From assembly GCA_009783245.1 (NCBI GenBank), contig WRHL01000002.1, positions 9,233-73,232 on the forward strand: a DNA stretch of 64,000 nucleotides. Direction: 5' to 3'. This stretch comes from Coriobacteriia bacterium (GTDB taxonomy: Bacteria; Actinomycetota; Coriobacteriia; Coriobacteriales; UBA8131). This document shows, in pieces, positions 6,109 to 61,982 of the stretch (position 1 is its first letter; every line of letters starts with the position of its first letter). The position numbers and the translations under genes were made by a program. A model generated the notes under the pieces. It searched no databases, was not told where the DNA came from, and worked only from the letters and a program-made list of their open reading frames with translations.

Positions 6109-7452
6109 CTACCCACCCACCTGAGCGATCTCAAATTCCAGGGTCGGCGGCAGCGAGGTGGTCGAGGTCGCCTGCCGGGGAGTCCCAGAGAAGCCTCCCC
6201 AGAATCGTTGCCAGCTGATCTTCACGCCTTCCCACCAACTGGGCTCGGGCACGTTCTCAGTTGCCACCAGATTCACATGGGAGATGACCTCCCGGTTCTG
6301 CGTCCAGATGATGGAACCCACCACATCACCCTTCATGATGGAGCCTTCCCTCTCGATCAGCTTCACTTCCTGGGTGATCGGGCCGTCGTAATCAAAGAAG
6401 ACGGTTGAGACCGGCTGTTCGGCGACCACGGACACCGTCTTATCTATCCAACTAGGGCAGGCGAGGTTCGCGACCGGTATGGTCGAATTGATCAGCTCGA
6501 TGGTACGGTAGTGCGCAAAACCCCATTCCAGCAACACCCGCGCGTCATCAAAACGCTGATACTCATCGCCACAGTGGAAGACAACCGCATAGAACTCAAA
6601 GCTGTTGCGCTTGGCGCTTGCGACCAGACAATAGCCGGCCTCATCGGTGAAGCCGGTCTTCACGCCGTTCGCGCCTGGCATAGAATCCAGCAGTTGGTTG
6701 GTCGAGTAGAAATACTCCTCGCGGTCATCGATCTCAAGGCTGGCCGTCGACAGGGTGACAACCTCGCGGAAGATCTCGTTCTCCATGGCAACGCGCGTCA
6801 GGGTCAGATAATCCCGGGCCGTTGTGTAGTTGCCGTCATCCTCAATGCCGGAGGCGTTGGAGTACTGCGTCCCGGTCATGCCCAGCGCCTCGGCCTTCTC
6901 GTTCATCATCTTCACAAAGCCGAACTCCGTGCCGCCCACATTCTCGGCGATCGCCACGGCGGCGTCGTTGCCCGAGGGCACCATCATGCACAAGAGCAGC
7001 TCCCGCAGCGTCAGCCTGTCGCCCTGTAGCAGATGCGACGAGGAACCCTCGGTATAGGCCGCCCCATAAGTCACGTACATGGGGGTGTCGGGACTCGAGT
7101 TCTCCAGCGCGACCAGCGCGGTCATGATCTTGGTGGTCGATGCCATGGGCACACTCACATCCGCGTTGCGCTCCCACAGGATGGTGCCGTCCTTCGCGCA
7201 AAGCGCCGCGTAATCAGCCTCTATGTCGGGCGCATCGGGCACCGAGATATAGGCTGAGCTCGTCGGCCGGTCCTGGTAGGCCTCGCTGATGGTCCTTCCG
7301 CTGACCGTGTCCTCAGGCCGGATGTCGGCAAGCGCGGTGACAGGAGCCGCAAAGAGGCTCCCCGCCACCAGTACAAGGGCAAGTGATATACGGAGAAGGA
7401 CGGGGCTCACCCCGCGCCCGCGCGAAGGCCTCGGCTTATGCATACAGCTCAC
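6109..7452 (-). CDS. dac: D-alanyl-D-alanine carboxypeptidase (peptidase S11)
   Basis: SxxK (ASTTK), SGN and KTG motifs; N-terminal hydrophobic signal; start uncertain. Confidence 0.92.
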   Translation of the reverse strand: MSCMHKPRPSRGRGVSPVLLRISLALVLVAGSLFAAPVTALADIRPEDTVSGRTISEAYQDRPTSSAYISVPDAPDIEADYAALCAKDGTILWERNADVSVPMASTTKIMTALVALENSSPDTPMYVTYGAAYTEGSSSHLLQGDRLTLRELLLCMMVPSGNDAAVAIAENVGGTEFGFVKMMNEKAEALGMTGTQYSNASGIEDDGNYTTARDYLTLTRVAMENEIFREVVTLSTASLEIDDREEYFYSTNQLLDSMPGANGVKTGFTDEAGYCLVASAKRNSFEFYAVVFHCGDEYQRFDDARVLLEWGFAHYRTIELINSTIPVANLACPSWIDKTVSVVAEQPVSTVFFDYDGPITQEVKLIEREGSIMKGDVVGSIIWTQNREVISHVNLVATENVPEPSWWEGVKISWQRFWGGFSGTPRQATSTTSLPPTLEFEIAQVGG

Positions 7453-14025: not shown

Positions 14026-14157
14026 ATGACAAAGGGCTTCATGACATATGACAAAGGGGACGGTCCCTTTTGTCATATGAAGTCCGGGGTGGCAATATGA
14101 CAAAGGGGACGGTCCCTTTTGTCATGATGCCCTTTGTCATGATGCCCTTTGTCATGA
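14026..14157. repeat. REP-like palindrome cluster
   Basis: Two full ATGACAAAGGGGACGGTCCCTTTTGTCAT units plus several CCCTTTGTCAT half units. Confidence 0.9.
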
Positions 14158-15613: not shown

Positions 15614-16579
15614 TCAGTCCAGAGGGAAGAGCGTGTAGGCGGTGCGGTCCTTGGAGGGGACGCGACAGACCTCTATGTGGAAGGCCTGCTCGATGGCGCC
15701 GGAGTCGAAGACCTCCTCCACGCTGCCGGCGCAGATGCAGCGGCCTTTCTTCATGACCACCATCGCGTCGGAGTAGCGCAGGGCCAGGTCGAGGTCGTGG
15801 ATGACCATGAGGATGGTCTTGCCGGAGATGCGGTTGAGCTCGGTGATCAGCTGCATGATGTCGTGGCAGGCGCGCACGTCGAGGTAGGTGGTGGGCTCGT
15901 CGAGCGCGATGATATCAGTGTCCTGGGCGAGCGTCATGGCGATGAAGGCGCGCTGCCGTTCCCCGCCGGAGAGGCGACGTACGTCGTGGTTGCGGAACTC
16001 CTCGATGCCCGCCAACAGCATCGCCTCCTCGATCTGCCGCTTGTCCTCAGCGTCAAGATGCGAGCGCATCTGGCTGTGGTAGGGATAGCGGCCGCAGGCT
16101 ACCAGCGCCTCGACGCTCATGGCGGGAGGCCGGGCGCCCTGTGCGAGCAGGGCCAGATGCCGCGCCCGCTGCCTGCCCTTCATCCCCAGGCTGGGTTTGC
16201 CGTCGATGAGCACCTCGCCACCGTGTGGCTCGATGATCCCGTCGATGAGCTTGAGCAGGGTCGACTTGCCGCAGCCGTTGGGCCCCACGATGCTGGTTAT
16301 CTCGCCTCGAGCGATGTCAAGGCTCAGGCCCTCGATGAAGGGCTTCTTGGTGTAGGTATAGCTGAGGTCCTTCACGCTGATGGCCTGCGGCGATACGCCC
16401 CTGGCAGGGGTGGATGCAACAGGGCGGGCGGCGGCGGATGTGACAAAGGGGACGGTCCCTGATGTGACAAAGGGGACGGTCCCTTTTGTCATGTCTTCTG
16501 AAGATGTGACAAAAGGGACCGTCCCCTTTGTCACATCCGCAAAACGCTCCGTCCCCTTTGTCGCATCTGTCTTACGCAT
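15614..16579 (-). CDS. Iron-complex/heme ABC transporter ATP-binding subunit, with repeat-derived N-terminal extension
   Basis: GPNGCGKST, LSGGERQR, LDEPT, HDL; ATG overlaps the permease 3' end. Confidence 0.92.
   Translation of the reverse strand: MRKTDATKGTERFADVTKGTVPFVTSSEDMTKGTVPFVTSGTVPFVTSAAARPVASTPARGVSPQAISVKDLSYTYTKKPFIEGLSLDIARGEITSIVGPNGCGKSTLLKLIDGIIEPHGGEVLIDGKPSLGMKGRQRARHLALLAQGARPPAMSVEALVACGRYPYHSQMRSHLDAEDKRQIEEAMLLAGIEEFRNHDVRRLSGGERQRAFIAMTLAQDTDIIALDEPTTYLDVRACHDIMQLITELNRISGKTILMVIHDLDLALRYSDAMVVMKKGRCICAGSVEEVFDSGAIEQAFHIEVCRVPSKDRTAYTLFPLD
16437..16567. repeat. REP-like palindrome cluster inside the ABC ATPase CDS
   Basis: GATGTGACAAAGGGGACGGTCCC units, read as TKGTVPFVT. 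Confidence 0.9.
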
Positions 16580-23796: not shown

Positions 23797-26700
23797 CTAC
23801 CGCAGTTCCAGCAGCAGGTTGATCAACGCGCTCAGCAGTCCTACACCTGCCTGAACGGGATACATCAGGCGTTGGGATTTCACCAGATATAGCCCGCCAC
23901 GCGCCTTGAGGGCAGCAGCCTGCTCAGCGGAAAGCTCCAGGGGCTCCAGCACCAGCTTGCCGCGCTGCAGGGCGACGCTGGTGATGCCCAGCTCGCCAGC
24001 CAGCGCCTTGGCGCGAGCCCGGTCGACCAGGTTCTGTGCCGGTGCAGGTAGGGCGCCGTAGCCCCCCACCAGCGCGGCTTCTATGCCTACAACCGCGTCC
24101 TCATCGGCGGCCGCGGCCAAACGCCTATAGAACAGCACCCGCTCATCGGCGGCCGCAACGTATTCCTCGGGCAGAAGGAAGGCAACCGGCAGGTCGATGC
24201 GCACCTCGGGATAGGCCACCTCATCCCTGGCGTCTTCGGCGCCACCGGCGCGTGCCGCTAAAACGGCCTCCTGCAACATGGAGGCGAACAGATCAAAGCC
24301 TACGGCTGAGAGCATCCCGTGTTGCTCGGCACCCAAAAGCGAGCCGGCCCCACGGATCTCCAAATCGCGCATGGCTATCTTCATGCCCGAGCCCAGGCCC
24401 TGGAACTCATCTATGGCAGTCAGCCGCTCAACCGCCTCTTCTGTCAGCACATTCTGCGACGGGAACAAGAAGAACGCATAAGCCTGGGCGTGCGAGCGCC
24501 CCACGCGCCCCTTGAGCTGGTAGAGCTGTGCCAGTCCCAGACGCTGTGAGTCCTCTATGATCAGCGTGTTGGTGTGCGGGTTGTCCAGACCACTCTCGAT
24601 GATGGTGGTTGCCACCAACACGTCGAACTCGTTGGCGGCGAAGTCCTCCATCACAGCCTCCAGCTGCGTGCCGCTCAGCTTGCCATGCGCTACGCCTATG
24701 CGCGCCTCCGGAGCCGTTGCCACCACCCGCGCCACTGCGTCGTCGATGCTCTTCACGCGATTGGACACGTAATACACCTGCCCGCCCCGCTCCATCTCTC
24801 GCCGGATCGCCGCGCTGACCACGTCCTCGTCCCACTCCCCTACGTGCACGTGGATGGGCGTACGGCTTGCCGGCGGCGTGTCGATCAGCGACATGTCGCG
24901 CACTCCGCTTATGGCCATCTGCATGGTCCGCGGTATGGGCGTGGCAGAAAGCGTCAGCACGTCCACCTGCTCACGCATGCTCTTGAGGTGCTCCTTGTGC
25001 TGCACGCCAAAGCGCTGCTCCTCGTCCACCACAATCAGCCCCAGGTCCTTGGGGTTGACATCTGACGATAAAAGCCGGTGCGTTCCCACCAACACATCCA
25101 CTGTACCTGTAGCAAACCCCTCCAGTATCTTCTTCTGCTGACTGGGGGTGCGAAAACGGCTGAGCACCTCCACGTTGACGGCAAAGCGCTCAAAGCGCTC
25201 CAGAAAGGTGAGGTAGTGCTGCTGCGCCAGGATGGTGGTGGGGCAAAGCAGCATGACCTGCTTACCACTCTGAACGGCCTTGAAGGCCGCCCGCAGTGCG
25301 ACCTCGGTCTTGCCAAAGCCCACATCGCCACATATCAGGCGATCCATGGGCCGCGCTGACTCCATATCTGCTTTTACATCAGCGATGGCCGCCAGTTGAT
25401 CGGCGGTCTCCTCATAGGGAAAGGCCAGTTCCATCTCATATTGCAGGTCGTTGTCTTGCGTATAGGCGTAACCCTGCGCCGTGCTGCGGCGTGCATAGAG
25501 GTCTACCAGGTCAAAGGCCAGCTTGTGAGCCGCCTTGCGCGCCTTGCCGGTGGCTCGCGACCAGTCGCTGGTGTTCAAGCGGGTCAGACGTGGTGCGGAA
25601 CTCTCGGGCCCCACATAGCGCGTTATCTTGTCTATCTGCTCCACCGGCGTAAAGAGCTTGTCGCCATGGGCGTATTCCAGGTAGAGGTAGTCTCGCTCGA
25701 TGCCGGCGACCTCCTGCCTGACAATCTCCTTGAAAAGCGCGATGCCGTGGGTGGCGTGCACCACATAGTCCCCCGGCTTGTAGGGGAAGGTCAGCGACGT
25801 GGGGTCTACCGCCCGGCGCGAGCGCCCTCTGCGCGAGACCGCCTGCGAACCGCTGCCCTCGCTCAGGGAGAGCAGGCCGATCTGCGCTGCTGGGATGATG
25901 AGCGAGGTCGCAAAATCCATGTCGACGATGTTCAGCACCGTCCTGCTCAGCTCACCTGCGCCCTGCATCCAGCCCTGCGCCTCGCCCTTCACCTCGCCCA
26001 TCACCTCGCCCTTGCCCTCAGCCCTACTGTCGCCCTTGCCCTGCGTCTGGAACTCTGCAAAGGGAAGATGGGCATCGCTTAAGACCAGCTCAGCCCCTGC
26101 GCGTGCGCGACGGTCCGCTATGCCCAGCACCGGAAGGAACCTTGAGGCCAGAAGCGAGCGAACGCTTGCTGCTAGCCGCTCGTCTGAGGAGGTATCGGCG
26201 TGCTTGACCTCCAGCCGGGCATCAAGGTTGGCGCCCCCGCTGATCAGCGAGAGCAGGGTCAGCCGCTGCTGGGTCCCAAAGTCCAGCTGGGCGGGATGCA
26301 TATACAGGTCCTCCAGCGGGGCTCGCGCCAGCTTGGCTGATGCCTCCAGCTCCTCAAAGTAGCGCAGGCTGTCGTCTATAAGCGAGCGAGGTTCGATAAG
26401 CGCGACCATGGCCGAGTCATGCAGATAAGCCAGAGGCGTTACGCAATCCGTATAGAGGTAGGGCAGGTAGCGATCCAGCTCGTTGAAGAAGACACCCTGC
26501 CCGATCTGCTCCGCGTGTTGCAGCACCTGCGCTGGTAGCTTGGCAGCCGCAGCGCCGGTTAAAAGCGGTATCTCTCTCAGCGCCCGCGCCCTGGTCTTCT
26601 TATTGAGAGCCAACTCTCGCGCCGGGTAGATGTCCACGCTATCCAACATGCCGATGGACTGGCCGGTAGCAGGGACCAGCCGCCTGATGACCTCCACAAA

Positions 26701-27423
26701 CTCGCCAAAGAGCTCCACACGCACGGGATAGGAGTGCCCGGCGGGATAGATATCCAGCGTGTCGCCGTGCAGAGCAAAACTACCCGGCTGCTCGGCGCGG
26801 TCCAGTTTATCCAGGCGCTCATAACCCCTGCTTACGAGAAGGGCGCTTAACCCATCGTAGCTAGCCTCGGCGGAGAGCTCCTCTCCCGCCACAAAGCACA
26901 ACGGCGCAAAGACACTTGTGGATGTGACAAAGGGGACGGTCCCTTTTGTCACATCTTCAGACTTGACAAAAGGGACCGTCCCCTTTGTCACATCCGTCCC
27001 CCTTGTCACAGGGGGTGGCACCAGCCGCAGCAATGAGCGAGCGCTGGCAACAACCACGCCCGGCTCGCCTTCTGCCAGCGACTGGATGGCCCGAGCCCGT
27101 TGCCCAACCTGCTGCACGTGCTTGAACTCCCTAGGCAGATCTCTCCAGGGCAGATCGGTGCGCAAAGGCAGCTGCATCACTGCATCATTGCCTAACCAGA
27201 CGGCAAGGTCCCGCGCGAACAGATAGGCCGCCTCCTCACCAGAGACCACCACCAGTATCGGTCGCGGGTCTTTAGCATAGGTGGCTGCCAACAGGAAAGG
27301 CCGTGCAGACAAGGGCACGCCTATGACCACGTCTCGCCCCGTCTCAAGCTTTGCCGCCAGCGTATCCAGCGCCTTGCATGCAAAAAGCGCCTCGGCAAGC
27401 CTCTGAATCAACATCTGCGACAA
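23797..27423 (-). CDS. mfd: Transcription-repair coupling factor
   Basis: CarD/RID (GDYVVHATHGI), GDVGFGKTEVA, DEEQRFG, SATPIPRT, QLKGRVGR, TRCF C-terminus. Confidence 0.97.
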   Translation of the reverse strand: MSQMLIQRLAEALFACKALDTLAAKLETGRDVVIGVPLSARPFLLAATYAKDPRPILVVVSGEEAAYLFARDLAVWLGNDAVMQLPLRTDLPWRDLPREFKHVQQVGQRARAIQSLAEGEPGVVVASARSLLRLVPPPVTRGTDVTKGTVPFVKSEDVTKGTVPFVTSTSVFAPLCFVAGEELSAEASYDGLSALLVSRGYERLDKLDRAEQPGSFALHGDTLDIYPAGHSYPVRVELFGEFVEVIRRLVPATGQSIGMLDSVDIYPARELALNKKTRARALREIPLLTGAAAAKLPAQVLQHAEQIGQGVFFNELDRYLPYLYTDCVTPLAYLHDSAMVALIEPRSLIDDSLRYFEELEASAKLARAPLEDLYMHPAQLDFGTQQRLTLLSLISGGANLDARLEVKHADTSSDERLAASVRSLLASRFLPVLGIADRRARAGAELVLSDAHLPFAEFQTQGKGDSRAEGKGEVMGEVKGEAQGWMQGAGELSRTVLNIVDMDFATSLIIPAAQIGLLSLSEGSGSQAVSRRGRSRRAVDPTSLTFPYKPGDYVVHATHGIALFKEIVRQEVAGIERDYLYLEYAHGDKLFTPVEQIDKITRYVGPESSAPRLTRLNTSDWSRATGKARKAAHKLAFDLVDLYARRSTAQGYAYTQDNDLQYEMELAFPYEETADQLAAIADVKADMESARPMDRLICGDVGFGKTEVALRAAFKAVQSGKQVMLLCPTTILAQQHYLTFLERFERFAVNVEVLSRFRTPSQQKKILEGFATGTVDVLVGTHRLLSSDVNPKDLGLIVVDEEQRFGVQHKEHLKSMREQVDVLTLSATPIPRTMQMAISGVRDMSLIDTPPASRTPIHVHVGEWDEDVVSAAIRREMERGGQVYYVSNRVKSIDDAVARVVATAPEARIGVAHGKLSGTQLEAVMEDFAANEFDVLVATTIIESGLDNPHTNTLIIEDSQRLGLAQLYQLKGRVGRSHAQAYAFFLFPSQNVLTEEAVERLTAIDEFQGLGSGMKIAMRDLEIRGAGSLLGAEQHGMLSAVGFDLFASMLQEAVLAARAGGAEDARDEVAYPEVRIDLPVAFLLPEEYVAAADERVLFYRRLAAAADEDAVVGIEAALVGGYGALPAPAQNLVDRARAKALAGELGITSVALQRGKLVLEPLELSAEQAAALKARGGLYLVKSQRLMYPVQAGVGLLSALINLLLELR
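26920..27010. repeat. REP-like palindrome doublet inside mfd
   Basis: In-frame peptide VTRGTDVTKGTVPFVKSEDVTKGTVPFVTST. Confidence 0.9.
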
Positions 27424-27500: not shown

Positions 27501-27673
27501 ATGACAAAGGGGACGGTCTGACAAAAGGGGTCTGACAAAGGGGACGGTCCCTTTTGTCATGGACAGAACCTTCAACCATGCTGAGGCTGCTACAATGTGA
27601 CAAAAGGGACCGTCCCCTTTGTCAGACCGTCCCCTTTGTCAGACCCCTTTTGTCAGACCGTCCCCTTTGTCAT
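27501..27673. repeat. REP-like inverted cluster in the mfd/nth divergent promoter region
   Basis: 27501-27560 and 27596-27673 are inverted mosaics of TGACAAAGGGGACGGTC units; TACAAT boxes at 27493-27498 (-) and 27591-27596 (+). Confidence 0.9.
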
Positions 27674-28570: not shown

Positions 28571-31500
28571 TCAGCGATACTCGCGGTTGCCTTCCTTGCG
28601 GCGGCGACTACGCAATAACGACAGCAACAGCAGGGTCAACGTTATCAGCACAAAGGTCCCGATGATGAGCAGGGATTGCATGTCCAGCTTGTTGCCGGTC
28701 TGGTTATCGCCAGCACTCAGCGGAGTATCGGTGTCGTCTATCGTGCTTGTGTCATCACCATCAGCGCTATCATCGTCAGCGGCATCATCCGCCACCGAAA
28801 CCTGCAAGGTCAGGCTCGCAGAATACCCGTCACTGAACTCAGCTACAAAGGTATAGTTCCCATCCTTCAGTGTCTTCAAGTAGCTTTCCTCAAAGGTAAT
28901 CACGGTTTCTGCACGTGCAGTGTCACCACGCAACGTGTAGTTCTCAGAATCGACAACAGCGCCATTCAGCGTCAATCGCAAGAGCTTCCCTGGATCCGCG
29001 CTTATCTTTGCAGCAGCCGTGCCGCTTCCCTTCCAAGCACCAAATTGGCTTTGGACGTTATATGTGCGGGTAGCATCAGTACCCCCGCTGCCCTGCCCTG
29101 TGATGTTCAACGTAATGCTGCCAGACACGCCTGAACCATCCTGAGCCGTAGCGCGCACCACCACCGTGCCATCGGCACGAGCCGTCACCAAGCCGCCAGA
29201 GCTTAATGAGGCATAGGCTGATCCGCTCACAATGCTCCAGGTAACCGACGTGTTTGTTGCGTTAGATGGAGAGATATAGGCATAAAGTTGTAGGGTTTCG
29301 CGCGGCGCACCAATGGAAGTAACTCCCCCTGCGCTACTCACCGTGATGCCCGTCACATAGACCCTTGAGACGGGCACATCCCGATAGTTCGCAGTCACGG
29401 TAGCCGCGTTGGCCGGCATAGTATAGGTGGTGCTCGCACTTCTGGGGTTGGCAATAGCCCCACCGCTGCTCCCTGACCATTGGTCAAAGACCTTGCCCGC
29501 AGGCGCCGCAGCAGCAGAAATACTCACCACCGTACCAGCAGGGTAGTTGCCGCTACCGTAACCACCGTTAACCCTCAATGTATAGGTGACAGGCGCATCA
29601 GCTACAAAACCCGCCCTCAACGTGACGGCGCCGGTCGGCATGCTGAAAGTAGCGGGATTGGCCATGCTACCACCCGCAAGTGACGCGCCGCTTATCGTCC
29701 AACCGGTGAAGTGATACCCAGGATTCGCAGTAGCTGTAACACTCACGGGCGTCGCTGCCTCATAATTCCCACTCGCCGTGCCCATCACCGAGCCTCCGGC
29801 GCTTGTAGTAACCGTAAAGTTGTACTTCGGCACTGCCGCAACCTCAAAACTCACGTCAAAACTCGTAGCAATACCGTTTGCGCCGCTCACCGTCACAGTA
29901 GCCTCATACTCACCCACAGCAAGCCCCGTCATCGGCGCCACACTGAAGCCAACGATCCCGTCCACAGCGATACTCGTGAGCATAGCGTCAGAAAGCCTGA
30001 AGGCATAAGTATCCGCACCACTCAGCGCAACACTCAAAGCGCCTGTGGGCTGATTCCCGGTATTGCTGACGATAACAGACAGGGCTGTCTGGGTCCCATA
30101 ACCAGCGACGACGGGGTCAAAGACCTGCATCCCACTGGCATCCAGCGAAACGCCGTAAGTCGACGCGGGCGCCGCAGCGGTGACCTCAACGCTGAAGCTT
30201 GCGGTCTGGATGGTATCGCCTCCGATGAAAAGGCGGTTGTCGGTGTAGGTCACCGTGACCGTCTGGGTGCCTACCGTGTCAAGCACCGCACCATCAGCAG
30301 GGTCGGTCACCACCAGATAGGTGACATCCTCGAGATACGAGTCATCAGAGGGACTGACCCTATAGGTTGCCATGACTTCCAGCCCTGTCAAATCCAGCGC
30401 CTCGCCTTCGATGTAGCTGGTCTTGGCAGGCTCAGACGTCACCTCGATGCGTTCCAGGATGGTCAGCCAGTCGATCGTATAGAAGGTGATGATGAAGAAC
30501 GCGTTTTCTGTGATAGAGCCGTCGGTAAAGTAGACCATGACCTTAAAGGGGGTCCATTCGTCAAGCACCGTGCCGCTTGCAGGGTCGATGACCACCAGAT
30601 CCGTGACGTCTGCCGAAGAACCGTCGCTGTATAGGGCAACCACCTTAAGGCCCGTCAGGTCGAATGTCTCCCCATACATGTAATTCGTCTTTGTCGGAGC
30701 CTCCTCGATCACCAAAGCGGTCAGATACGGCTCCGGTGCAGCAACCACCTCGACCGTGAAGCTCGTGGTCTTCATCACGGTATCCTCGGTATAGCCGATA
30801 AGTACGGTGACGGTACCGACCACATCCAGCTGGGAATACGCAGCCGGGATGATGTCGATATACTCCGTGACATCAGCAGTGGAACCGTCAGAGTACGTTG
30901 CCGTGACCTCTAGGCCTGTGTAGTCAAGTAGCTGCCACTCATGATAGCTGGTCTTTCTGGGCTCGGCCGTCACCGCGATGCTCTCCAGCTGCGGCTCACC
31001 CCCCAAGACGGAATACACATGCACCACAGGCTCCCCGCCAACAGCATAGAGGCTGTAGACATACAGCGTCCTGGTATCCGCGTCAAAGCAGGAACCGGCT
31101 ATCTCCTGCCCGGCGCTGGTCGCCGTATTGGGCAGGTTCATGTAGGCCATCGAAGACGGTACAACGCTTTCCCGGGGGATGGCGCCTGTGGCGGCCTGTC
31201 CCAGAGTCTCATAATCGTAGAAGTTCCAGACGTTCTCAAAGGTGGCATTCCAGTTGGCGCCACCATAGCCATAGTCAACGCGACCAGTGGAAAGGTGGTT
31301 GAAGCTCACATAGCCCTTCTTGTCGGGCAGGTCGATAAAGACCCCGCTGCCAACCGAACAACCGGCGCCCCACCAGCCCTCCCAGGGGCTTATGGGATTC
31401 TTGCTGAAGGCGGTGCTTGTGTAGAAGACATTCCCGTCCCTGAGCGCAGGGTCGCTGATTGAGTAGTTGAAGACCGGCTGCACGCTCATAGTGCCGCCGC

Positions 31501-32698
31501 CACCGGGCACATCCACCGCAGCCAGAGCAGGTCCCCAGCTGGCTGAAGCGTTGATGCTGTATTCGCCTCCAAAGCCCAGACCCAAGGTCTTGCCTCCGGT
31601 ATATTGGCTGGCAAAGCCCTCAGGGATGTTGGTCACTCCGCCCCAGAAGGACTTGGCGGGCGCGCCGCCCAGATCGGACGGCTGATACCACTGGGCAACC
31701 TCGACCAAGGTGCCGCTGCTCAGATCAGCTGCTCGCAGCGTGGGAAAATCGATGGAGCCCGTATAGTAGAAATGGTAGTTGGTCCAATAAAGCAGGCCTG
31801 TGCTCTGCTCGTAATACAGGGAGCCGTTGGAGAATTCAGGCGCGTACCTTGGCAGCTCACCAAAGACGGAGCGTAGCTCAGCTGTGGGCACCGCAGAAGT
31901 GTCGCTGCCCACAATGGCGCCCGGTGCGGGGATGGCCACCTCATAGGCGGTTTGAGCGTAGGTGCCGGTGGCCAGGATCATGCGCTGCTCCCCGTCCACG
32001 GTCCGCAGGGTGATCCCGCTGGGGTAGAAGCTCTTCTCATCATGGATAGCGCCTGGCACCGCTGGCAAAGCAAAGCTACCCACATATTCCAGGTCAGACC
32101 CATCCACCACGCCCGGTATGCGTACCTGGACAGGCGGCATATCGGTGCGAGGCACCACCTCAAACGTGAGGCTTACCTCCGGGCCAAAGAAAGGCGCGCT
32201 CGCCCAATCGCGTACGTAGGTGTAGGGAGCCCATTCGGCCAGCTGCCAGGTCAGGGTGTAGGTGCCCGGCGTAGCGGGGGCCATCAGCGAGGTGTAGAAG
32301 GAGACGGTCTCACCGGGGTCAAAGGAATAGGCGTGGCCGGGGGTTATCAAAAAGGTGCCAAAATCCGCGTTGTAATCAGGGTTGCGGGTCAAAAAGGTGG
32401 TGGGATGCAGCTCGTCGGCGTAGTCGTCCACCCACGTCAGCGTTCCGATGTTCTTAACGATGAGTTCGAACTTGAACACCTGGCCGGCCGGTATCTGCGG
32501 CGGTGCGTCACCGGGTGTGTAGACCGCGTCATCTATGCGGACTTCCAGCAACTCTGCATCCATACCCGGATCCGCATAAGCCGTCACCTTGGATGGTGAC
32601 AGAAGCAGCAGGGACGCCAGCCCTGCTATAAACAGAATGGCAGTCAGAAAAGAGACGATCCTTTTGGATTGCGCCTTGATAGGCTTCGAAACACTCAC
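28571..32698 (-). CDS. Large surface-anchored protein with Ig-like repeats (Big_3 x3, InlB-B-like, Big_2)
   Basis: Signal peptide; three 'P.KTSY.....LD.TGL.V.A.YS' repeats; GYHFTGW and GKVFDQW repeats; C-terminal NQTGN, TM helix and basic tail. Confidence 0.85.
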   Translation of the reverse strand: MSVSKPIKAQSKRIVSFLTAILFIAGLASLLLLSPSKVTAYADPGMDAELLEVRIDDAVYTPGDAPPQIPAGQVFKFELIVKNIGTLTWVDDYADELHPTTFLTRNPDYNADFGTFLITPGHAYSFDPGETVSFYTSLMAPATPGTYTLTWQLAEWAPYTYVRDWASAPFFGPEVSLTFEVVPRTDMPPVQVRIPGVVDGSDLEYVGSFALPAVPGAIHDEKSFYPSGITLRTVDGEQRMILATGTYAQTAYEVAIPAPGAIVGSDTSAVPTAELRSVFGELPRYAPEFSNGSLYYEQSTGLLYWTNYHFYYTGSIDFPTLRAADLSSGTLVEVAQWYQPSDLGGAPAKSFWGGVTNIPEGFASQYTGGKTLGLGFGGEYSINASASWGPALAAVDVPGGGGTMSVQPVFNYSISDPALRDGNVFYTSTAFSKNPISPWEGWWGAGCSVGSGVFIDLPDKKGYVSFNHLSTGRVDYGYGGANWNATFENVWNFYDYETLGQAATGAIPRESVVPSSMAYMNLPNTATSAGQEIAGSCFDADTRTLYVYSLYAVGGEPVVHVYSVLGGEPQLESIAVTAEPRKTSYHEWQLLDYTGLEVTATYSDGSTADVTEYIDIIPAAYSQLDVVGTVTVLIGYTEDTVMKTTSFTVEVVAAPEPYLTALVIEEAPTKTNYMYGETFDLTGLKVVALYSDGSSADVTDLVVIDPASGTVLDEWTPFKVMVYFTDGSITENAFFIITFYTIDWLTILERIEVTSEPAKTSYIEGEALDLTGLEVMATYRVSPSDDSYLEDVTYLVVTDPADGAVLDTVGTQTVTVTYTDNRLFIGGDTIQTASFSVEVTAAAPASTYGVSLDASGMQVFDPVVAGYGTQTALSVIVSNTGNQPTGALSVALSGADTYAFRLSDAMLTSIAVDGIVGFSVAPMTGLAVGEYEATVTVSGANGIATSFDVSFEVAAVPKYNFTVTTSAGGSVMGTASGNYEAATPVSVTATANPGYHFTGWTISGASLAGGSMANPATFSMPTGAVTLRAGFVADAPVTYTLRVNGGYGSGNYPAGTVVSISAAAAPAGKVFDQWSGSSGGAIANPRSASTTYTMPANAATVTANYRDVPVSRVYVTGITVSSAGGVTSIGAPRETLQLYAYISPSNATNTSVTWSIVSGSAYASLSSGGLVTARADGTVVVRATAQDGSGVSGSITLNITGQGSGGTDATRTYNVQSQFGAWKGSGTAAAKISADPGKLLRLTLNGAVVDSENYTLRGDTARAETVITFEESYLKTLKDGNYTFVAEFSDGYSASLTLQVSVADDAADDDSADGDDTSTIDDTDTPLSAGDNQTGNKLDMQSLLIIGTFVLITLTLLLLSLLRSRRRKEGNREYR

Positions 32699-58031: not shown

Positions 58032-58064
58032 TCATGACAAAAGGGACCGTCCCCTTTGTCATGA
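58032..58064. repeat. Single REP-like palindrome
   Basis: TCATGACAAAAGGGACCGTCCCCTTTGTCATGA between convergent genes. Confidence 0.9.
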
Positions 58065-61951: not shown

Positions 61952-61982
61952 TATGACAAAAGGGACCGTCCCCTTTGTCATA
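61952..61982. repeat. Single REP-like palindrome
   Basis: TATGACAAAAGGGACCGTCCCCTTTGTCATA upstream of the nrfA TATAAT box. Confidence 0.9.

Follow-up and report, generated by a model that had tools for sequence, protein, structure and literature searches.

A palindromic repeat element in frame within the mfd gene of an uncultured Coriobacteriales bacterium

In a 64,000-nucleotide stretch of DNA (the window) from an uncultured member of the Coriobacteriales, the gene for the transcription-repair coupling factor, mfd, carries 90 bases of palindromic repeat within its reading frame. We consider it very probable that these bases are a composite hairpin element similar to a REPIN (an inverted doublet of repetitive extragenic palindromic, or REP, sequences that folds as one hairpin), that the element belongs to a high-copy family, and that it is read through in mfd as a loop of the protein. 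The gene and the parts of the element are:

23797..27423, minus strand: mfd (transcription-repair coupling factor), 1208 aa, intact, identified by its single open reading frame (ORF) and by Pfam
26921..27010, unstranded: inserted repeat element, 90 nt or 30 codons, VTRGTDVTKGTVPFVKSEDVTKGTVPFVTS in the mfd frame
26926..26950, plus strand: unit 1, exact 25-nt core (0 mismatches)
26951..26964, unstranded: 14-nt loop joining the two inverted units, ACATCTTCAGACTT, identical in a paralogous copy on contig C32
26965..26989, minus strand: unit 2, exact 25-nt core, inverted (0 mismatches on the minus strand)
26994..27010, unstranded: extra half arm CCGTCCCCCTTGTCACA on one side only, found by inverted-repeat search; in the C32 copy half arms are nested to the left and right of the doublet

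The single 1208-aa ORF reads LLRLVPPP-VTRGTDVTKGTVPFVKSEDVTKGTVPFVTSTS-VFAPL at the insert. Its product has the Mfd/TRCF architecture of a UvrB-homology N-terminal module, an RNA polymerase-interaction domain, an SF2 translocase and a C-terminal TRCF domain; the Pfam domains PF17757, PF02559, PF00270, PF00271 and PF03461 all score above their cut-offs, with UvrB_inter at residues 193-275 and CarD_TRCF_RID at 553-609, followed by DEAD, Helicase_C and TRCF. The 30 added residues lie in a short linker immediately upstream of the UvrB_inter domain, a site that matches the D1a/D2 domain junction of the E. coli structure. The inverted arms of the insert (26920-26956 and 26959-26995) are 37 nt long, 95% complementary and 2 nt apart. 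The repeat unit encodes V-T-K-G-T-V-P-F-V in either orientation because it is a near-perfect palindrome; another frame encodes DKGDGPFCH or DKRDRPLCH, while TGA is present in the remaining one, as read from the sequence. A reading made earlier from the sequence alone had described a palindrome inserted in frame in an intact mfd and encoding TKGTVPFV in both orientations. The first of these statements is borne out by the sequence, the ORF, an alignment of orthologues, Pfam and an AlphaFold model, and the second by the sequence.

Mfd orthologues were present in all 31 genomes searched in the family and order, and outside the insert the gene is 70-82% identical to its relatives in the best aligned segments. 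We aligned the Mfd ORFs of 29 relatives. The insert site is covered by 26 of the rows (L024, L036 and L038 do not reach it) and none of the 26 contains the insert peptide, in keeping with the view of the sequence-only reading that it had been added to the gene. The linker of the relatives, between ...LLRxVPP and VFAPL..., is 3-7 residues long, with the exception of L013, which has a different stretch of 17 residues. The insert peptide was also absent from all 20 metagenomic Mfd proteins that cover the site, among 22 taken from a large protein collection, and a metagenome scan for near relatives of this Mfd, made with over-general patterns, matched only Mfd loci that are 36-65% identical. In Mfd from M. 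tuberculosis (6aca), residues 60-167 align before the insert and residues 170-339 after it. By these comparisons the element in mfd is an insertion, and one that looks recent.

The linker has been altered in other ways elsewhere. The closest metagenomic Mfd proteins (P0002-P0005, P0007, P0009 and P0016) have other insertions of about 10-35 residues exactly at this point, which is therefore a permissive and repeatedly altered spot. One of them, P0005, has a linker that reads ...GTKGDRTEGDGS...RTVPFCPSS and recalls both repeat frames, and an unrelated-looking insertion occupies the linker of L013 (4608-4672). The idea that the relatives hold decayed copies of the repeat at this site was set aside: the inverted repeats in L013 are weak and imperfect (76-80% complementary) and the evidence is insufficient. 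The linker of L016 contains two short pairs of 13-15 nt (87-92% complementary) and no palindromes were found in that of L014.

One rival explanation is an error of assembly. The assembler might have joined or padded the mfd contig at a repeat, leaving a real gene that has no insert or a different one. The genome is a 1.99-Mb bin of 117 contigs that is 79.7% complete, and short-read contigs from the public runs end within the repeat, none of those listed spanning it, so the suspicion has some ground. We nevertheless regard it as extremely improbable, given that both flanks belong to one gene, in the same frame and collinear with its orthologues, and that each junction is found in a contig of a public run. 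Read support was judged on the assembled contigs of public runs; those in which the stretch is present carry the label termite gut metagenome. A 464-nt contig over 26500-26950 from a second study (run X2) contains the left junction, and another run (X1) has the right one in a 489-nt contig over 26979-27467, each with 0 differences; the joint expected of an empty site was in no public-run contig. The sequence-only reading had held that reads speaking against the insertion would overturn it, and on this point the two junctions stand, with the stretch between them crossed by no listed contig. In a further run, X3, the repeat is present at high summed depth without mfd flanks, so other members of the community, or other loci, carry it.

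The insert belongs to a family that is dispersed over the whole genome. The 25-nt core GACAAAGGGGACGGTCCCTTTTGTC has 21 matches in the window with up to three mismatches on both strands, at 11 distinct sites, and none in each of 100 shuffles of the window; its recurrence is therefore not due to chance. At up to two mismatches the genome contains 92 forward and 89 reverse matches (0 and 0 for the reversed control), and at up to four mismatches there are 191 sites, of which 112 are exact, again with none for the reversed pattern. The unit is a palindrome of 29-33 nt, [A/G]TGACAAAGGGGACGGTCCCTTTTGTCA[T/C], frequently flanked by nested half arms and often paired, and its orientation is set by one G-T position in the 12-bp arms. 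Among 63 neighbouring pairs of units, 39 are arranged '+-', 10 '++', 8 '--' and 6 '-+', with variable loops. The family thus has the size and copy number of REPs, which are imperfect palindromes of 20-40 nt in tens to hundreds of copies, and the 39 '+-' pairs of the 63 are inverted doublets like REPINs, which fold as one hairpin, as the mfd doublet is predicted to do. Spacings between arms of the same orientation were multiples of three in 128 of 245 cases, in a 9-mer arm search with a high background (484 in the control against 1382) and with mirrored arms that are not independent of one another, so that we attach no meaning to this count. In Rfam, searched at a permissive E-value, the only matches were generic long-hairpin ones to eukaryotic microRNA precursor models, far below gathering scores; no known RNA family fits the repeat.

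The closest paralogue of the mfd insert is a large nested element on contig C32 (G000:C32:7150-7330), a doublet with three half arms on each side. The two match at 87 of 88 aligned bases (C32 positions of about 7202-7290), with a single 1-nt gap and the same 14-nt loop, which shows that the doublet was copied whole. The mfd copy is without the outer arms on one side. The C32 copy sits between two convergent predicted genes, about 4 kb from a gene on the same contig that resembles a REP-associated tyrosine transposase (RAYT). A second short motif, TTGTCACCCCGGGCTTCA, and its complement often accompany the units, for example at G000:C2:23282-23355 (14050-14123 of the window) and C7:17386-17459, and this motif may belong to a longer composite element.

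This genome contains by far the largest expansion of the repeat among the genomes searched. The exact core was found in no other species-representative genome and a 23-nt core had no match in viral contigs, in collections from which the records of the genome itself may have been left out. When up to three mismatches are allowed, 6 of the 34 genomes in the family contain the core, with no more than 6 matches outside its own genome, as distinct variants that also form inverted pairs. The 15-nt arm TGACAAAGGGGACGG, at up to one mismatch, is more widespread: it has 295 matches here, 36 in G018, 24 in G144, 22 in G197, 17 in G017 and 14 in G134 (controls 0-2 throughout), these genomes coming from two families, and 0-3 in most of the other 201 genomes. 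Related repeats are thus present across the order. In G144, G197 and G134, which are near-complete genomes of another Coriobacteriales family, 14-24 copies of arm variants (TGCCAAAGGGGACGG, AGACAAAGGGGACGG and TGACAAAGGTGACGG) occur as inverted pairs about 50 nt apart, and this suggests an order-wide superfamily of repeats. A bolder proposal is that the superfamily, with the conserved arm ..CAAAGGGGACGG.., is served by an unrecognised trans-acting enzyme and has been expanded here as a source of protein and regulatory novelty, with units that have become structural in enzymes such as RlmKL and with a 35-bp hairpin in mfd that throttles transcription-coupled repair. We think this a long shot; if true, the throttling of transcription-coupled repair by the hairpin would let the element alter the mutation and repair regime of its host.

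Insertion into mfd is one case of an outcome seen in about 20 other genes. Our crude gene call gave 1578 genes in a genome that is 87% coding. By location, 125 of the 191 cores are intergenic, 32 lie inside 22 of these predicted genes, 10 overlap the end of a gene, one is near a 3' end, and 23 fall within the first 30 codons called for a gene, where the true start is probably further downstream. With 65% of its copies between genes in so densely coding a genome the family is strongly depleted in genes, yet it is frequent there, and in being mostly extragenic it resembles REPs, which often lie downstream of convergent or co-directional genes; the C32 copy is located between convergent ones. The intragenic cores respect the reading frame: 21 are read in one open frame and 11 in the other, giving VTKGTVPFV or DKGDGPFCH/DKRDRPLCH, and none in the frame that contains TGA. 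Exact cores are equally frequent inside genes (19 of 32) and between them (70 of 125). This is the pattern of Rickettsia palindromic elements (RPEs), palindromic repeats carried in frame in many protein-coding genes. A search for KGTVPFV found 30 occurrences in 21 of the 1578 crudely predicted genes, and none for the reversed peptide. The suggestion of the sequence-only reading that the family generates a recurrent peptide module in the proteome thus held, with inserts confirmed in five proteins.

Of the stop-to-stop ORFs, 26 have a core that is 60 or more codons away from both ends; 19 of these match Pfam families and 7 do not. Units lie within or between the domains of a DAO oxidoreductase, Mfd, RsgA, a class-V aminotransferase (Aminotran_5), a DUF512 radical-SAM protein, a peptidase U32 (two sites), TsaD, a PyrK-like protein, HemC, an MFS transporter, a type II dehydroquinase (DHquinase_II) and RlmKL (three sites). 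The units split or span the Pfam domains themselves in the DAO, Aminotran_5, DUF512, U32 (both sites), TsaD, HemC, MFS, DHquinase_II and RlmKL cases. Ambiguous cases were not counted: the unit could be located between two genes in the fumarase/DUF2229 ORF, the two-ABC ORF and LigB-AMMECR1, and ahead of the true start in PhoU and HycI, while the CobB/Q and Carb_kinase sites have 4 mismatches. We checked insert status against orthologues or solved structures for Mfd, AroQ, HemC, RlmKL and TsaD. All five AroQ orthologues and all three RlmKL orthologues that were found are without the insert, and TsaD has 39 residues after its HLEGHIY motif where PDB 8iey has 5. The HemC insert is absent from the sole orthologue found, in one of five genomes searched, so that case rests on one comparison. 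The RlmKL-like gene (G000:C93:2697-2721, locus L063, minus strand) has a single unit with 2 mismatches that encodes ITKGTVPFVI, and these residues align with WQPGT-P--LL of E. coli RlmL directly before DPxCGSGT, for a net gain of 3 residues. Here the repeat-coded residues seem, on this alignment, to have replaced native ones beside the catalytic motif. On this evidence, repeat-coded residues can be taken up into a fold.

For the insert in Mfd the prediction is a disordered loop. An AlphaFold2 model of residues 1-360, built with a 24-sequence alignment, has a mean predicted local distance difference test (pLDDT) score of 88.9 and a predicted template modelling score (pTM) of 0.87, and its sole segment with pLDDT below 50 is 143-166, within the insert. 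The best Foldseek matches of the model are the N-terminal structures 2b2n and 6ac6 (E of about 1e-18). Confinement of the low scores to the insert, together with the match to the Mfd fold, leads us to predict a disordered surface loop on an intact fold, which is the location that the sequence-only reading had thought of. It might be argued, from the ITKGTVPFVI residues placed just before DPxCGSGT in RlmKL with their net gain of 3, that the peptide has been recruited for a function, such as a new interaction loop in Mfd. We hold this to be highly improbable for Mfd, where the model predicts a disordered insert, none of the relatives has the peptide and its DNA is identical to intergenic copies, so that there is no sign of selection at the level of the protein.

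The element has a second potential effect, on the message. The sense-strand RNA of mfd forms one hairpin of about 35 bp with an energy of -80.1 kcal/mol (z = -11.9), and 0 of 200 shuffled sequences fold as well; as DNA the doublet has an energy of -46.5 kcal/mol. The main rival to read-through starts from this hairpin: a double-strand RNase would cut the perfect 35-bp stem, or ribosomes would stall at it, and Mfd would be lowered or switched off, which would make this copy a hypomorphic or regulatory allele and not a neutral loop. The single long stem is as the rival requires and both units are exact copies, so that no decay has relaxed it. The remainder of mfd, however, is intact, with all of its Pfam domains and 70-82% identity to relatives in the best aligned segments, which argues for continued selection on the protein, and the same doublets occur in TsaD, RlmKL and other housekeeping genes. 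We therefore see an effect of this kind as unlikely, if more credible than any other alternative to read-through of the element as a loop. Ribosomal bypass, intein-like removal and RNA splicing of the insert were dismissed, because with a frame that is open along its whole length plain read-through can be had without further assumptions.

Copy number, exact identity and one near-identical paralogue point to active mobility, and so to the 'selfish' DNA of the sequence-only reading. The contrary proposal is that the repeats are not mobile DNA: some other molecular drive would maintain the sequence, for instance as a DNA-uptake signal or as a site for an abundant DNA-binding protein, and the intragenic copies would be such sites written into coding sequence. 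Such a drive would fit the 112 copies of 191 that are exactly the same 25-mer, the recurrence of the TGACAAAGGGGACGG arm in other Coriobacteriales genomes of at least two families and the failure to find a cognate transposase. It fits poorly with the build of the copies, in which half arms and doublets are nested in arrays and the loops vary, with the duplication of one 88-nt composite along with its loop, and with the 65% of copies that are intergenic in an 87% coding genome. Relatives, moreover, are without the extra residues altogether, so that at most sites residues were added and not recoded. We judge the proposal to be very unlikely and favour a mobile family.

Two genes in the genome match PF01797 (Y1_Tnp, the Y1 transposase family), and for both the best NCBIfam match is REP_Tyr_transpos (NF047646). 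Transposition would be the route by which the mfd copy arrived, with these two RAYT-like genes as the candidate agent. A single-copy RAYT flanked by cognate REPs, the hallmark of a REPIN/RAYT system, was not found in the genome. The second of the two genes (G000:C115:1-1987, L069) is truncated at the end of a 2-kb contig, where it adjoins a 354-aa ORF on the opposite strand that resembles, by eye, an insertion sequence transposase. An attempt to link RAYT to the repeat by co-occurrence gave evidence neither way, since repeat abundance does not track the enzyme: G018 has 36 arm matches and no homologue, and in family f13 the homologue is present in 28 of 31 genomes although there are almost no arms.

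Several observations weigh against our account of the mfd element. In view of the other insertions that closer metagenomic Mfd proteins have there, the linker may be an old variable region that was overwritten, and not an empty site that was filled. The exact internal size of the insert depends on the assembly, as none of the contigs listed crosses it from end to end. A target-site duplication, which together with the terminal inverted repeats of a parent insertion sequence marks a MITE, was not seen in the sequence at either end, and the consensus of 150 aligned copies has no conserved flanking motif. We could connect no transposase with the family: with REP_Tyr_transpos, for which the cut-off is 80 bits, the scores of the two Y1_Tnp genes are 51.7 and 27.5; no repeat arm was found within 3.3 kb of the intact gene (G000:C32:2253-3140, 296 aa); and homologues of its RAYT-like product were found in 77 of the 201 genomes searched in the order, the majority of them without the repeat. 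Translation through a 35-bp hairpin of -80.1 kcal/mol in the mfd message is an assumption, and the genome-wide gene counts come from a crude codon-usage gene caller made for this analysis.

These considerations leave a composite REPIN-like element, read through as a loop, as the account that we prefer. The element would be made up of two inverted palindromic units of 29-33 nt, a 14-nt loop and one half arm. A copy of a larger nested element of the C32 type may have inserted into the mfd linker, or been copied there by recombination, the target lying by this scheme between the first N-terminal block and the UvrA-binding domain of Mfd. The gene stays open because the length of the insert is a multiple of three, because two of the three frames are free of stops in either orientation and because the linker tolerates length. 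The ribosome most likely reads through to give an Mfd with a disordered surface loop of 30 residues. We infer that the cell produces a working Mfd of this form and tolerates the insert without gaining from it.

Our findings extend 'protein-coding palindromes' to an uncultured gut lineage of the Actinomycetota in which the load is unusually visible: the 2-Mb genome has inserts in some 20 genes, including mfd, tsaD, rsgA and rlmKL. They provide a compact natural set of tolerated loop insertions, together with one case, RlmKL, in which repeat-coded residues would have replaced native ones next to a catalytic motif, and the genome is a test case for REP-like spread in which there is no obvious flanked RAYT. 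They also carry a warning for annotation. The repeat peptides KGTVPFV and DKGDGPFC produce spurious similarity among unrelated proteins of the lineage, and such matches were met in the search for Mfd.

Other copies of the family in the window are:

14050..14123, unstranded: two direct family units, intergenic by our gene call
16442..16532, unstranded: three clustered family units at the 5' end of the predicted gene 15614-16579 (minus strand), probably upstream of its true start
27534..27623, unstranded: inverted doublet in the divergent spacer between mfd and an endonuclease-III-like gene
58036..58060, minus strand: single family unit, intergenic
61955..61979, minus strand: single family unit, intergenic

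The longest ORF of the endonuclease-III-like gene (from TTG at 27554) reads the doublet as CDKRDRPLC..., and because it runs through the doublet at 27534-27623 the annotated start is probably too far upstream. This nth-like gene is adjoined by an unrelated one (28571-32698, minus strand) for a predicted surface protein of 1375 aa with repeated domains and a C-terminal membrane anchor.

The inverted doublets of REPIN/RAYT systems, described by Bertels and Rainey (2011), reportedly fold as a single long hairpin and seem to be copied whole. The family described here is like them in its inverted doublets with one long hairpin and in the presence of Y1 (IS200-like) transposase genes in the genome, and unlike them in that the intact RAYT-like gene has no flanking repeats (0 arms in 3.3 kb) and falls below the REP_Tyr_transpos cut-off.

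A closer parallel inside genes is found with the REPs surveyed by Di Nocera, De Gregorio and Rocco (2013; PMC3733652). According to the main text of that survey these are short palindromic GTAG- or CGTC-tagged sequences of high copy number, mostly intergenic and often arranged as inverted dimers, and in several species they also occur inside ORFs, a minority wholly so, where dimers encode 20-30 residues. Many of the host genes that it describes function in DNA synthesis and excision repair (uvrA, uvrB, uvrD, polA); others encode tRNA synthetases and pseudouridine synthases. In-frame REP insertions, in excision-repair genes among others, have thus already been published for several phyla, and the mfd dimer, with its 30 encoded residues, and the units in tRNA and rRNA modification genes resemble them as there described. 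The tagged families of that text have an unpaired GTAG or CGTC tag, a stem of 8-9 bp, a loop of 4-5 nt and, for CGTC, a CCA tail. Our consensus of 150 copies differs in having neither GTAG nor a conserved CCA tail and in placing CGTC at the apex of the palindrome, and the Coriobacteriales units differ further in being commonly flanked by nested half-arm arrays. The words 'Actinobacteria' and 'mfd' do not occur in the main text of the survey, which does not list the phylum of our host; its gene list is in Additional file 3, which this count does not cover. Our literature search found no paper on such repeats in the Coriobacteriia or Coriobacteriales, or on REPIN/RAYT in the Actinobacteria.

RPEs (Ogata et al. 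2000, 2002, as summarised in PMC10969869) represent the extreme case of in-frame fusion; by that summary they are about 150 bp long and in some families nearly half of the copies are intragenic. Set beside this description, the repeats studied here are similar in being dispersed palindromes, in frame in many unrelated housekeeping genes, that encode a conserved peptide and leave the ORF unbroken. They differ in their units of 29-33 nt and doublets of about 90 nt, in the smaller intragenic share (32 of 191 cores, 17%) and in their host, a free-living gut actinobacterium and not, as Rickettsia is, an obligate intracellular alphaproteobacterium. The analogy with RPEs that the sequence-only reading had drawn therefore holds in a functional sense, and its impression that nothing of the kind had been described for this group agrees with the literature that we found for the Coriobacteriia. 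The insertion in mfd is a known kind of event, the intragenic insertion of a REP- or RPE-like element, and not a new mechanism; what is new here is the lineage and the sequence of the repeat.

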